DNA of 64,000 nt from Eledone cirrhosa (lineage: Eukaryota). The stretch lies in assembly GCA_964016885.1 (NCBI GenBank), contig OZ024742.1, positions 363,134,001 to 363,198,000 on the forward strand. Direction: 5' to 3'. The notes under the pieces were generated by a model. That model did no database searches. It was not told the origin of the DNA and was given only the letters and a program-made list of their open reading frames with translations. Shown here piece after piece: positions 819 to 59,941 of this stretch. The translations under genes and the position numbers were made by a program. Each line of letters opens with the position of its first letter. Position 1 is the stretch's first letter.

Positions 819-1262
819 AAAATAAAGTTAAATAAAAGTCAAATGATTAAAATTTAGCTTCGTTTGTTACTGCTATATATTTCAGTGACAGCCATCTTTG
901 GTTGTGACCTCTTCAGGCAGTTTGAATTAGTATGGTATAGACAAGTACATATGTTGTTTAGGTGTATAATATTGTCAATACTCGGATATGCCCAGTTCCT
1001 TGTTGGGTTGTTAATTCACTGAGGAACTGGAGTCTTATGACTCCAGTTCCTCAGTGAATTCAAACTGCCTGAAGAGGTCACAGCCAAAGATGGCTGTCAC
1101 TGAAATATATATAGCAGTAATAAACGAAGCTAAATTTTAATCATTTGACTTTTATTTAACTTTATTTTACACTACTCCGGAGTAACCAAACCAACCTGCG
1201 CACTTCGTCGAGTGCTCCAGCCTGCATACTGAAGTGTTGGTATACAACCAACATAAACTCAA
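819..1262 (+). mobile_element. Non-coding PLE-type fold-back insert in (TA)n (inverted arms 819-928 and 1057-1169, plus 3' tail)
   Basis: Arms are near-perfect reverse complements, each with a hammerhead motif; unique ~90-nt tail; TA runs on both sides. Confidence 0.8.
1064..1118 (+). ncRNA. Minimal type I hammerhead ribozyme motif (mirror copy 869-921 on minus)
   Basis: actgc-CTGAAGA-g gtcacagcc aaagat ggctgtcac t-GAAA-tatata-TA-gcagt: stem I actgc/gcagt, intact core, palindromic stem III. Confidence 0.85.
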
Positions 1263-1625
1263 AATCTCTCTCTCTATATATATATATATGCAGGTATGGA
1301 CATAGAATAAAGAATGCAAATGCAAAAGATATTGTTGACAATTAGTCTTTTACCTTAGAATTATTTAAATGTCCTTAATTTTCGAGATAATATCTCTTCT
1401 TCGGAGGGAAGTAAATCGCTTGCCAAGTCATGCTGACAGGAAATGGTATACAGGAAATGGCTTTATTATATATATATATATATATATATATATTTTTTTT
1501 TTTTCATTAGTTAAGCAAAACAAGACCACAAATTTCTCAAGGAAAATATTATTAAAAGATTGTCAACATAGTTTTAGTTTAATGTAAGGAATGTAAAGAA
1601 TAATAATGATAATACTAATAATGTC

Positions 1626-1813
1626 AGTTTACAATTGTTTCACTACTCCATATAATGTTTCTGGATCAAATGATTATAGACGGGGGTCGATAAAATAAAG
1701 TACCAGTAATGTACTGGATAATTGCTGGCCTTATGCCAAAAGTAGAAACAATTATTGATCTGGTTCAGTTGAAGATAATTAACTTAGGTAAATTGGAGCA
1801 GCTCATCAGAACT
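1626..1813 (-). ncRNA. Hammerhead motif with greatly enlarged stem II loop (interrupted by a SINE)
   Basis: agtt-CTGATGA-gctgctcca...tggagtagt-GAAA-caattg-TA-aact on the minus strand. Confidence 0.7.
1680..1756 (+). mobile_element. SINE 3' fragment
   Basis: ggggtcgataaaataaagtaccagtaat...agtagaaacaattatt matches the 3' half of the SINEs at 43276, 49473 and 61773. Confidence 0.85.
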
Positions 1814-4800
1814 TCAAAATGAATATAAATTAAAGTAAAGAAAGAAGATTACATGAATGTAATGTTTCATATAATGGTATTTCACTATGGTGTCCTGGGT
1901 ATATCTATTGTCTGCTATAGGCGAGCAATATTCTTCTGTTGAGGCTGCATTATGTGAGATCTGCCTATGGGTAACAAGATAGCAGCCAAAGGACATATTT
2001 ATCTTACTAATTAGAGGGTGGATTCAGGGGAAGTAACTCCTCGAGAAATTAGAAATTGTAGGTAGTTTATAGTTAAGAATTGCTAATGACTTTAAATGAG
2101 AGACAATGTACTGGAGGTAACTTATAATTATCTAAATTAGCTGTAACTATTTAACTTGTTAACTATAAGGAAAAGTGGGGATAGATGACTATATTGGGTC
2201 AAATATTCTCTTGGCGAAGGAATTAGCTCTTCGATGTTGAGAGCTAATAATTACCTCCGTTCTATCATTAATCGGTGGAGGTCGTGATAGAGTTATGTAA
2301 TAGGCTTCGGTAAGACAGAGATCACAAGAGTTTCTTCGTCCATTGAACGGTTGGGCCCTAGCCAAGATATCCCATGTTAGTCAGTGTTCAATGTTGGTTA
2401 ATTTAAGGTGTTTAATGAGCCTAGCTACAGATATCGAACATCTATTGCTAGGGTCTCGGAAGGAAAATGAGTGCGCATTATAGCGTACCTTAAAAGGGTT
2501 AGAGATAGAGCCAATATAGGAGCTGGTATGCGATGCTGTTTTAACTGTGCACCTATGAACTATATTGGGTGTAAGGCATTGTCCGTTTAGAGGGCATGCA
2601 TTAGGGTAACGGCAATTGCAATTACTGCTGCGGTTAGTGATAGTAGGGTTGTTTAAAATATGCGGTTGGTGCGTGTTAGAAGGATTAGATGGGGGAGGTA
2701 TGCTACTAGCGTAAGTATTGGTGTAGTGGCGTGGTGTATTGGGGGGGGGGGGTAGTAGTACCGCGGTGTGGTGTATTACTGTCTTAGTTCATGATGGTTA
2801 CTGAACGCGATGTGGCTAGCTAAGTTAGGTGTTGTGGAGAATGAGATTTTATGAGGTTATTAGAATGAGATCATGGGTTTATTATTACCTGGGCGTTAGT
2901 TATTTGTCATCCTATCGCTCATTCCTATTCTAGGGTTGGTTTTGAATCTGCTACTTGGAGTGGGAAGTAGGCATCTGCCACCATTAAAGTTCCCTGTATA
3001 GGTGCTGTTACTGCTAAGGTTACGGCGAATCTAGGTATATGCTAAAGTATTTCTAGTTCTAGTGCTAAGTTTATTATAGTTGTGGTGAAGTGCTGTGTTA
3101 TGGCATTTAGGTATGTAGTAAATGGACTGTTCATAACCAGATTCAGAAAGAGCCTTATTATAATATGCCGCATGGTTTATAAATACCTCCTCATTTGCGG
3201 ATAGCATGGAGATCCTATACGAGATAGATTTGATGACTGCTCTGATGACTGCCGGTGGGTGGTTAGAGTGTGGGATAATATATGTAAGTATTTCACCTGG
3301 TTTATGATAAGGGTAATATAAGTTATTGTTAAGATCTGGGGTAACGTCAAGAAAGTTTACTAATTTAGGGTTCGGCTCGATTGTGATAGAGAGACCGTTA
3401 TTTAAAAAAATCTATGTAATTGTTTTTTGAGCAAGTCAACGTCTCGATTAGTGCAATTGTGGACTGCAAATAGGGCGTCGTCCCTATATGTTCCACCTTG
3501 CAAGGGTTGGATTTAAGCTCTGATGGTATGCAATAGGTAGATTCCAACTAAATCGGTGATTTGCGCAGAGTCGCTTGAGCCCATAGTGATGTCGAAGTTG
3601 TCTGTTCTGTCCTTTCTAGTCCAGAATGAACCGTTGAATTCAATGATGGTCTGCCTAGCCACAAGTATGATGTCAATCTCGTTATTTGTTATGTCAGAGT
3701 TGGTGCTGGCTAGGGTTAATGCTTTGTTAAGCAGTGCCGGGGTTATTGAAGCGTAGTAGCTGTCAATGTCAAATTGGAGGAACCGCATAGATTCCTTGGA
3801 CCTTAGATCGGAGAACCATCTGATGACTTGGCCGGTGTTGGACCACAGCTTGTATGTGATATCATCTCGTAGCCCAGTTTTGGCTTCTAACCAAATTGGG
3901 ATTATGAGTCTAATAGATGGGTTCTCAATAAAGTTTGGCTTGTCATCCTTGAGAGAAAACCTAGGAATTGTAGCTACAGCCAGATTCGCCGGAATCTTAG
4001 CAGTAACAGCACCTTTATAGGGAACCTTAATGGTGGCAGAGGCCTACTTGCAACTCCAAGTAGAAGACTCAAAATCAACCCTAGAATAGGAATGAGCAAT
4101 ATGATGACAAATAACAAACGCCCAGGTAATAATAACCCCATGATCACCCCTGCCAACTCCACTAGTACCCCAAGAAGGAATAGGCCTAGAAATATCACCT
4201 GGCTTAAACACCCATTCTCATCTAACTTAGCCACTAATATCCCTAAACCCTTCTTCTCTATCCTATCTAAATACCCCCCCCCCAACCATAGATATTACAA
4301 ACTCTTAAAAAAAACAACAACATTAAAATCTCATTCTCCACACCACAGCTAAAACAGCATCGCATACCAGCTCCTATATTGGCTCTAGCTCTAACCCTTT
4401 TAAGGTACGCTATAATGCGCACTCATTTTCCTTCCAAGACCCTAGCAATAGATGTTCGACATCTCTAGCTAGGCTCATTAAACACCTTAAATTAACCAAC
4501 ATTGAACACTGACTAACATGGGATATCTTGGCTAGAGCCCAACCGTTCAATGGACGAAGAAACTCTTGTGATCTCTGTCTTTCCGAAGCCTATTACATAA
4601 CTCTATCCCGACCTCCACCGATTAATGATAGAACGGAGGTAACTATTAGCTCTCAACATCGAAGGGCTAATTACTTCGCCAACAGAATATTAGACCCAAC
4701 ATAGTCATCTATCCCCACTTTTCCTTATAGCTAACAAGTTAAATAGTTACAGCAAATTTAGATAATTATAAGTTACCTCCCGTACATTGTCTCTCATTTA

Positions 4801-58236: not shown

Positions 58237-58795
58237 TATATATATATATACATATATATATATATATATATATTGCAGTCCACTTTAGGAAGCATGTGGT
58301 GGGTGATCAATAGACCCACGGGTAGAATGAGTCGGTGACATGCTCAATCTGTCAAATTGTCTGCAAGACAGCTACAGGCCCCAAGAGACATACGCGTTGA
58401 TGGAATAAACACGCATAGATTTTTTTTATTTGAAACGAAAAAAAAAAAAAAGGTGAACATTGATTTGTCGTTGTTCGAGGCGAGAGAATCCTTCATATGA
58501 ATATATTAAAATATATGTGACATTTACTAACAGATTGTGAATAACAATTTTCGAAATCTCATTCCGGTATGTGTATAAAATGTTGACAACATAGACTTAT
58601 TACAACACAAACATGTTAACGATAATTAAATAAAAACTAATCATGCAGTGAGCAACGTGAATACATATATATATATATATATATATATATATGAAATAAA
58701 ATTGGTCTTCGGAAATGTCAGTGCTTGTTACAGAATGTGAATATTGATTATTATTACATATTTCTATATTTATATATTTTGCTTAATAGTTTTAC

Positions 58796-58888
58796 CTCGA
58801 TGTTGGTATAAAGAGCCGTATGATCTAAGGTTATTAGCTGAATGCCTACATCCTGTAAATATATGCTTGCTAATCCGCTTTGCGTGAG
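58796..58888 (-). other. Candidate 93-nt frame-preserving host exon
   Basis: tattctcttccttttgcAG acceptor, gag|GTaaaa donor, non-repetitive, open in two frames (LTQSGLASIYLQDVGIQLITLDHTALYTNIE in phase 0). Confidence 0.35.
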
Positions 58889-59578
58889 CTGCAAAAGGAA
58901 GAGAATATAGACATGTAGATCTAACTACTATGGTAATATAGAGATTCCTACTGAAGATCTCATCGATTAGCAACTGAAAACCAAACATACAAAACAAAAA
59001 AAATTCAAAATGTCGACTCAATGACAATAACAATGACAACAACAATATCAAGATATGTACGCTGCTATTTTCATTGATGCATTGTTGTTGTTGTTAGCAT
59101 GTTGCTGGAGCTGTTCGAAGGAAGGAGTGGAATTAATGAAGGGAAATACATATTACAGCCATTTCTTCATTTAATCGAAACAGTATGTCAATGTGGACTT
59201 GTAACATAGTTTTTGTAGTAGACTTTCATTCACAGACAGAGAGAGAGAGGGGAGTGACGTAGAGATGGAGAGAGGGAGAGGAAGGGAGGGAGAGAGGGAG
59301 AGAGAGAGGGGGAGAGAGGGAGAGGGAGAGAGGGAGATAGAGATGGAGGAACGAGAGAGTGAGAGGAAGAGAGAGTGAGGGAAGAGAGAGGGATGAATGG
59401 AAGAGAAAGAGAGAAATGGGTTATATAATAAGATATCTACTCGGTCTACAAGTTCATTTTATATATATATATATGGGTACACACACACATATATATATAC
59501 ATACATATATATATTTATATGATATATATATATATATATGTATGTAAGTGTGTGTATATATATATATATATATATATA

Positions 59579-59941
59579 TAAAGAAAAAGAGATGAAATCG
59601 AAAATGCAACTGGAGTCTTACTTTTTAAAAAAATATATATATTTATTTGGTTCCTTTACCGGTTTCGCAGTTCTTCTGCTTTTCAAAAGGTGAGTTGAGA
59701 TGGAGGGTCTGTGGTTTTTCGCACATCTCAGATGTGAGAAAAACCACAGACCCTCCATCTCAACTCACCTTTTGAAAAGAGAAGAACTGCGAAACCGGTA
59801 AAGGACCCAAATAAATATATATATTTAAAAAAAAAATAAGACTCCAGTTGCATTTTCGATTTCATCTCTTTTTCTTTATACTTTCACTCGTGTAGGACAC
59901 CTCGGTTATTTTTCATCTTGTAAAAAAACCCTCACTTTCTA
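59579..59941 (+). mobile_element. 300-bp near-perfect palindrome plus tail, with hammerhead-like motif
   Basis: Arms 59579-59728 and 59730-59878; cctt-TTGAAAA-g(c)agaagaactgc-GAAA-ccgg-TA-aagg, then AATAAA. Confidence 0.82.

Follow-up and report, generated by a model that had tools for sequence, protein, structure and literature searches.

Head-to-head ends of Penelope-like elements in (TA)n tracts of Eledone cirrhosa and their likely origin by twin priming

Double-ended inserts in the window

The stretch analysed here (the window) comprises 64,000 nucleotides (nt) of Eledone cirrhosa, assembly GCA_964016885.1, contig OZ024742.1, positions 363,134,001 to 363,198,000 of the forward strand. It holds a series of short inserts in (TA)n tracts, each composed of two arms in inverted orientation that represent Penelope-like element (PLE) 3' ends. 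A first-pass annotation had listed 13 such inserts, in which one arm lacked the last ~60-180 nt of the element. Inverted arms were located by masked self-BLAST of the window and then mapped onto family references; they were found at all 13 listed positions and represent ten families. The tail by which one arm exceeds the other measured 65-181 nt, in agreement with the earlier estimate. Ten inserts (819, 8930, 9320, 34795, 36940, 44463, 50274, 57750, 57882 and 59579) are a clean fit, having (TA)n on either outer side and a pair of arms of which one stops at the short end and the other at the tail end, the tailed arm being the left one in 8930, 9320 and 34795. The inserts at 1503, 18417 and 48797 fit only partly. 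Three further inserts of identical design had been absent from the list, and the supposed spacer between the arms proved to be mostly further element sequence of one arm. The double-ended observation is thus confirmed in part. In window coordinates the inserts are as follows, where ORF stands for open reading frame, SINE for short interspersed element and pLTR for pseudo-long terminal repeat.

818-1262: F819 insert; short-end arm 818-1040 (minus), junction piece 1041-1056, tailed arm 1057-1262 (plus), hammerhead cores at 916 (minus) and 1069 (plus), tail 95 nt
1503-4898: F44463-family insert, partial fit, with ~2 kb of ORF; short-end arm from 1503 (minus) continuing into ORF sequence, SINE within hammerhead stem II at ~1680-1756, forward ORF pieces 3971-4839; the right copy is without pLTR and retains just the last ~50 nt of the tail (4853-4898)
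7781-8887: unlisted insert of a family searched within the window only; left tailed arm (tail ~128 nt), right short arm, additional small tail-end palindrome at the junction (8338-8459)
8930-9259: F8930 insert; left tailed arm (minus), right short-end arm (plus) with the hammerhead core deleted, tail 97 nt
9321-9909: F9320 insert; tailed arm 9321-9671 (minus), short-end arm 9739-9909 (plus), tail 163 nt, hammerheads degenerate
18418-18771: F18417 insert, partial fit; tailed arm 18418-18622 (minus), diverged forward arm 18615-18771, which has 81% identity to the reference, extends ~50 nt beyond the short end and has no TA flank
34799-35002: F36940 insert; left tailed arm, right short-end arm, near-symmetric junction, tail 80 nt, hammerhead reduced to its 3' half
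35681-35786: unlisted F36940 insert; inverted short-end piece and forward tail-only piece without common sequence, (TA)n on both sides
36939-37619: F36940 insert; short-end arm 36939-37121 (minus), tailed arm 37127-37619 (plus)
43903-44039: unlisted F18417 insert; inverted short-end piece and forward tail-only piece without common sequence
44459-45140: F44463 insert; short-end arm 44459-44560 (minus), tailed arm 44558-45140 (plus), long-stem-II hammerhead at 44712, tail 181 nt
48796-48997: F48797 insert, partial fit; left tailed arm without adjoining TA, right short arm, junction immediately 5' of the hammerhead core
50268-52612: F50274 insert; short-end arm 50268-50433 (minus), non-coding body, tailed arm to 52612 (plus), hammerheads at 50380 (minus) and 52369 (plus), tail 139 nt
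57753-57868: F36940 mini insert; inverted short-end piece of ~18 nt and tailed piece of 96 nt, without hammerhead
57882-58236: F57882 insert; short-end arm 57882-58051 (minus) with an intact hammerhead at 58018, tailed arm 58056-58236 (plus), tail 80 nt
59577-59941: F59579 insert; near-symmetric junction 59728/59729, U3-A8 hammerhead variant intact at 59686 (minus), tail 65 nt

The inverted pair at 61774-62143 was rejected as a member, since it is made up of two copies of a common SINE and lacks TA at its flanks. Elsewhere in the window, an 80% palindrome at 42717-42977 carries hammerhead-like cores and a long stem II on both strands. At 43065-43138 lies a 74-bp symmetric inverted-repeat element with TA flanks, in contrast to the asymmetric inserts; it looks like a true miniature inverted-repeat transposable element (MITE) of the Tc1/mariner type.

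Arm ends, pairing and junctions across the genome

The 3.0-Gb genome, which is rich in (TA)n, was searched with one arm from each of the ten families, and the best 30 loci per family were taken from 636 to 3609 first-look candidates, 40 being scored per search. Removal of ten window loci and one duplicate (L087) left 289 loci, a sample biased toward window-like, tail-bearing copies, in which L069 and L070 lie in one array and L376 and L377 are apparently duplicated. Within 1.5 kb, 150 of the 289 loci had an inverted arm at the family-fixed short end, 65-181 nt before the tail end. At 8 loci the second arm was tailed as well, at 15 there was some other inverted piece, and at 116 no inverted partner was seen. 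Longer flanks of a small part of the unpaired loci, read by eye, revealed ~20 more short-end partners, so that the paired share of 52% is a lower bound. The 116 unpaired loci had diverse fates. In 40 the copy ends in TA or simple repeat, in 13 it meets an inverted same-family body, in 18 it continues past the edge of the locus and in 8 it is joined to another reference (a SINE in 6 of them; one of the 8, L011, seems spurious). The other 37 are joined to different sequence.

Two outer ends are fixed in every family, the short one and the one with the tail; both abut (TA)n, and each is also found alone. The short ends lie about 95, 65, 139, 80, 88, 181, 80, 163, 97 and ~65 (53-81) nt before the tail end; they are grouped within a few nt in nine families and spread over 53-81 nt in the old family F48797. 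Paired arms are nearly always one short and one long (tailed), of the same family and source lineage, and they differ by 0.3-4.7% per family.

A census of the ten families, covering twelve 50-kb blocks (600 kb) chosen at round coordinates, gave 66 events, namely 27 long+short, 3 long+long and 2 short+short pairs, 20 solo long and 14 solo short copies, with the short arms of F48797 partly under the search threshold. Long+short combinations therefore account for 27 of 32 pairs (p 6e-5 against random pairing). The earlier view that this architecture is the dominant outcome holds insofar as it is the largest single class (41% of census events, at least 52% of tail-bearing copies), yet it is not overwhelming. 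A denser, non-PLE SINE served as control: its 72 copies formed 8 head-to-head pairs, compared with 32 pairs for the 98 PLE arms. This difference and the clustered short ends speak for more than chance. The census density was ~45 pairs per Mb for the ten families; with 13 pairs over its 64 kb, the window is above the average. In these 600 kb, paired arms were never separated by a (TA)n run of 8 units or more. Five of the 27 long+short pairs have no common sequence, and several tail-only arms stop near the short start. Moreover, (TA)n adjoins the short end in 13 of the 14 solo short-end copies, which argues that the short end primes on its own.

The junction analysis covered 115 asymmetric loci, among them the window copies, from the eight families other than F8930 and F48797. 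The junctions are distinct at 113 of these loci and new at each locus. In 35 they are near-symmetric and fall at family hotspots, the same hotspots that limit solo copies. The hotspots lie about 315, 212, 140, 246, 275 and 138 nt from the tail end. Microhomology of at least 3 nt was present at 22 of 53 insert-free junctions, against 6% in the null. At 26 loci the tail-less arm extends further 5' than its partner, by more than 10 nt and up to 1.1 kb, so that neither arm contains the other; at L110 (F819) it is this tail-less arm that carries the ORF. As for the sequence of the arms, the two arms of a locus agree at 99 of 176 shared variant sites, versus 423 of 3380 (12.5%) across loci, with 26/27 in F819 and 43/58 in F9320, two families in which agreement is near-complete at subfamily-diagnostic sites.

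In raw Illumina data from three other samples, both types of end are seen next to (TA)n, in hundreds to thousands of reads. Opposite-strand joints of many different kinds occur there at the hotspot of F36940, and one such joint at that of F44463. A short-read search showed no read or contig that spans the window's own junctions uniquely. Distinct junctions and strand-switch joints in raw reads together indicate that the inserts are neither MITEs nor assembly artefacts.

Joins between families were also seen. A direct cross-family inverted join occurs once among the 116 unpaired loci (L244, oriented 1165-1806), where an inverted F18417 short-end arm meets an F9320 arm with tail, the pair being bounded on its outer sides by (TA)n or simple repeat. 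Two chimeras, of F59579 onto a F9320-like ORF (L099:6700-8620, L056) and of F50274 onto a F36940-type element (L074:16-1797), have a tailed arm fused at its own 5' hotspot to the ORF or 3' untranslated region of another PLE with no TA between, which suggests that the reverse transcriptase (RT) jumps between templates of different PLE RNAs. The flanks of the L099 chimera (6590-6700 and 8690-8760) are mutually inverted, the chimera sitting at the centre of an older palindrome.

Hammerheads and parent elements

Rfam reported no hammerhead family in the window, giving only sub-threshold matches of miRNA type on hairpins and simple repeats; hammerheads were for this reason scored with our own descriptor, initial short-stem-II scans having overlooked long-stem variants. 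To call all inserts hammerhead fold-backs, as was done at first, is too strong, for an intact motif is predicted in only 5 of 13 (819, 44463, 50274, 57882 and 59579). The CUGANGA half is absent in 34795 and 57750 and deleted in 8930, and the remaining inserts are degenerate. At the level of families, 7 of 10 references have a predicted sense-strand type I minimal hammerhead, whose score is reached by 0-2 of 200 shuffles, and none has one on the antisense strand. The references of F18417, F36940 and F48797 fail the descriptor, with core-like remnants visible by eye. U4C and U3-A8 variants and long stems II are present. The cDNAs run across the predicted cleavage sites, which are found 43-134 nt 5' of the short end, implying an uncleaved template RNA. 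In non-LTR retrozymes, it is hammerhead cleavage that sets the monomer ends; this identity was rejected, as the outer ends and the 5' hotspots both differ from the cleavage site.

The PLE origin proposed at first pass was borne out, since the families map to PLE pLTRs and seven of ten lie downstream of an ORF with RT and C-terminal GIY-YIG domains: F59579 (L095-L098), F819 (at one locus, L110), F8930 (L358), F18417, F44463, F36940 and F9320. Their pLTRs are found in partial or full tandems (window 10017-14403, L264, L274; 2.8-kb tandem units in L091 and L102). The order at L274, inverted pLTR, pLTR, ORF and pLTR with tail, is that of a textbook PLE. Tandem tails extend to ~40-50 nt before the ORF (window 10345; L264). 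The window itself contains one near-full-length copy:

10017-14403 (plus): Hydra-like PLE of family F9320; 5' pLTR and tail 10017-10345, frameshifted RT/GIY-YIG ORF 10385-12837, 3' pLTR that stops at the short end, with hammerheads at 10101 and 14321

By their motifs, the ORFs of F819, F8930, F9320, F18417, F36940 and F44463 are Hydra-like. Their translations have a CxCX5C linker, lack CCHH and show CxxC and CxH around the conserved E/N; DKT was seen in the window ORF alone, and some copies are truncated or mutated. These features, with hammerheads and (TA)n insertion, are shared with the Hydra clade as described in PMC8557442, where members insert almost always in (TA)n and RWK is given in place of the RWR of the window ORF. 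Pfam did not recognise the Hydra-like ORFs, whose identity is read from motifs. The partner of F59579 is Neptune-like by the same kind of evidence, having at L098 a CX2-5CxxC linker and CCHH in the GIY-YIG domain (Pfam GIY-YIG E 2.7e-7). A homologue search with the ORF proteins returned mostly unnamed entries and no clade label, the few named ones including octopod and other marine invertebrates.

F50274 has a 2.8-kb non-coding tandem unit, with no ORF of at least 300 aa and no PLE protein match. It is young (window 50433-52316; L091), with ~99% identity; each unit contains one hammerhead, and a 503-bp stretch is duplicated internally. An ORF lying upstream of L074 was rejected as its partner because it belongs to the F36940 family.

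Other elements share the window. A Neptune-like PLE ORF with in-frame stops (14859-16643; Pfam RT and GIY-YIG matches) has ~55% identity to the F59579 partner, and no inverted arm was seen with it. At 17320-18243 lies an old element related to F59579; its hammerhead, a U3-A8 variant, is at 17583, and inverted pieces of its body surround a TA run at 17787-18243. Two related non-LTR copies (19443-24861 and 28833-32009) on the minus strand, with a 1068-aa endonuclease/RT ORF and an upstream ORF, lie beside (AAT)n runs with nested RT fragments between them. An abundant SINE-like family of ~190 bp is present at 1683, 37709, 38705, 38882, 43274, 49473, 53034, 61774 and 62027. The SINE lies near hammerhead stem II in several F44463 copies (window 1683; L181, L188, L195, L187, L197), which are possibly a subfamily that propagated with the insert.

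Origin of the paired arms and comparison with known systems

The inserts are truncated, head-to-head ends of endonuclease-bearing (EN+) PLEs, and we consider it fairly probable (about 0.6) that they were produced by coordinated twin target-primed reverse transcription. The element protein would cut both (TA)n strands and each 3'-OH would prime one cDNA. One of the two would begin at the short start and its partner at the tail-end start, a single uncleaved RNA being the simplest template for both. A tail-primed cDNA stopping at or before the short start would leave arms without overlap, while one displacing the first cDNA would give overlapping arms and a palindrome. Both cDNAs may often halt at a common family-specific point, either the RNA 5' end or a stall at a structure, and their ends would then be joined by microhomology or with inserted bases. 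Run-off or stalling of both cDNAs at one point would be expected to give near-symmetric junctions at hotspots. The earlier proposal of two separately primed cDNAs joined at truncated ends is supported by the non-overlapping pairs, the long+short bias and the shared variants. Separate priming is also favoured by the TA-flanked solo short ends, the 26 loci with a further-reaching tail-less arm and the junction microhomology. Coupling of the two events is indicated by the long+short bias, the agreement of arms at variant sites and the single direct cross-family join among 116 unpaired loci. The in vitro behaviour of a Poseidon PLE, described below, also speaks for the model. The second part of the proposal, in which self-complementary (TA)n makes both sides of the cut equivalent primers, alone leaves the consistent pairing of one long with one short arm unexplained; the two priming events need coordination. 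In a tentative and more specific version, to which we give somewhat less than even chances, a single RNA offers two fixed start sites to one protein dimer, which extends both (TA)n ends, as an obligate part of PLE integration that yields the tail, the inverted pLTR and the palindromes, with strand displacement deciding overlap.

Several observations weigh against twin priming. Inserted or unalignable bases are found at 62 of 115 junctions, so microhomology joining is not the rule. The 89 of 115 loci where the tailed arm reaches further 5' or within 10 nt also suit fold-back copying, and later deletions at the palindrome centre could have created some of the 26 non-nested loci. Variant sharing is weak in F59579 (1/26, mostly homopolymer alignment noise), F57882 (5/18) and F36940 (9/27), and it does not distinguish a single RNA from two that come from the same active source. 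One centre string is common to 7 of 27 F48797 loci. In addition, the genome loci searched gave no ORF-bearing partner for F50274, F57882 or F48797, and no long upstream copy for the latter two.

Self-priming, in which one strand folds back and is copied so that the second arm is a copy of the first, would explain why arms share source variants (55 of 361 private variants in both arms versus 1.6% across loci) and why near-symmetry is seen at 35 of 115 junctions, some of them lying at short palindromes. Such priming on an antisense template was proposed for Penelope elements of Adineta in PMC3846280. It is nonetheless rather unlikely here, considering the pairs without common sequence (35681 and 43903 in the window and five in the census), the arms that are not nested, the solo short-end copies flanked by TA and the cross-family pair L244. 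About as doubtful is an origin from two different RNAs, one per subunit or particle, with cis-assembly or a single active source keeping the arms within a family. Overlapping arms do require two RNAs or strand displacement, and L244 and the chimeras show two RNAs meeting at one site. Yet this alone leaves the long+short bias and the tail-only arms ending near the short start unexplained, and cross-family pairs are rare though ten families share the target.

The remaining alternatives are far less probable. Movement of the palindromes as DNA MITEs, or as whole master palindromes, would fit the uniform size and recurring centre of F48797 copies and the two junctions that recur among 115. It is very improbable for the inserts in general: their ends are asymmetric and 113 of 115 junctions distinct, as the view of retrotransposition taken at first pass implies, and the symmetric terminal inverted repeats and conserved interior that define a MITE are lacking; variants track within loci rather than by arm side, and arms continue into PLE ORFs. 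The palindromes resemble MITEs but do not move as MITEs. Two independent insertions, inverted by chance in one (TA)n run, might be expected where copies are dense and different families nest in the same TA runs; this explanation, more improbable still, is largely refuted by pairs of the same family and lineage combining one long and one short arm, without a (TA)n run of 8 units or more between them in the census. As for an assembly or amplification artefact, which the want of a read or contig uniquely spanning a window junction would permit, the chance is close to negligible, given arms that differ by 0.3-4.7% per family, family-fixed ends, and raw reads with the end types at (TA)n and varied opposite-strand joints. 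The interpretation is, like the observation, supported in part.

By rough extrapolation from 27 events in 600 kb, the ten families account for some 10^5 such events in the genome, as an order of magnitude. These numbers are sufficient for a statistical test of twin priming versus self-priming, and exact start sites are supplied. Repeat annotators would likely mislabel the palindromes as MITEs or microRNA hairpins, masking a large retrotransposon fraction.

Among known systems, LINE-1 twin priming also has both target ends priming cDNAs, which are joined in inverted orientation by microhomology. Our non-overlapping pairs look alike; in contrast to LINE-1, the second start lies here at a site fixed within the element, and the arms, whose overlap is usually 50-700 nt, form true palindromes.

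The head-to-head layout with a one-sided tail is already described for PLEs (PMC3846280, PMC8557442, PMC4209133). PMC3846280 describes the inverted pLTR, an optional 31-bp tail and junction palindromes, and PMC8557442 presents the layout in general form, with tails of 30-40 bp and (TA)n as target, and names the origin of inverted pLTRs and one-sided tails an open problem. Our inserts share with these EN+ PLE insertions the inverted truncated copy head to head, the one-sided tail, the pLTR hammerhead, the (TA)n target, junction microhomology and palindromes, and solo pLTRs; they differ in tails of 65-181 nt versus the published 30-40 bp, in being mostly non-coding stubs and far more numerous, and in a measured long+short bias. 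In Schistosoma, opposite-strand pairs of minimal hammerheads 100-700 bp apart, with a U3-A8 variant, have been noted (PMC4209133); they too are short head-to-head hammerhead-bearing PLE stubs, with the core seen in F59579, and receive one sentence in the available part of that paper, without analysis of ends or junctions.

The closest biochemical parallel is the Poseidon PLE PAc of Anolis, for which PMC11167929 reports in vitro that both target strands are cut and extended, that RT starts at two internal sites bounding the tail, and that a dimer is predicted, with steps after priming left unvalidated. Two tail-bounding starts, an uncleaved RNA template and, on our model, use of both strands are shared with our families. 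The PAc tail lies inside the ORF, whereas those of F9320 and F18417 end ~40-50 nt before it, and the main text of PMC11167929 does not model inverted pairs. No twin-priming model of PLE palindromes was found in the literature searched, which left most subscription journals and all supplements outside its coverage. What sets the Eledone cirrhosa inserts apart is the long tails, the scale across ten families and the statistics favouring coordinated twin priming.

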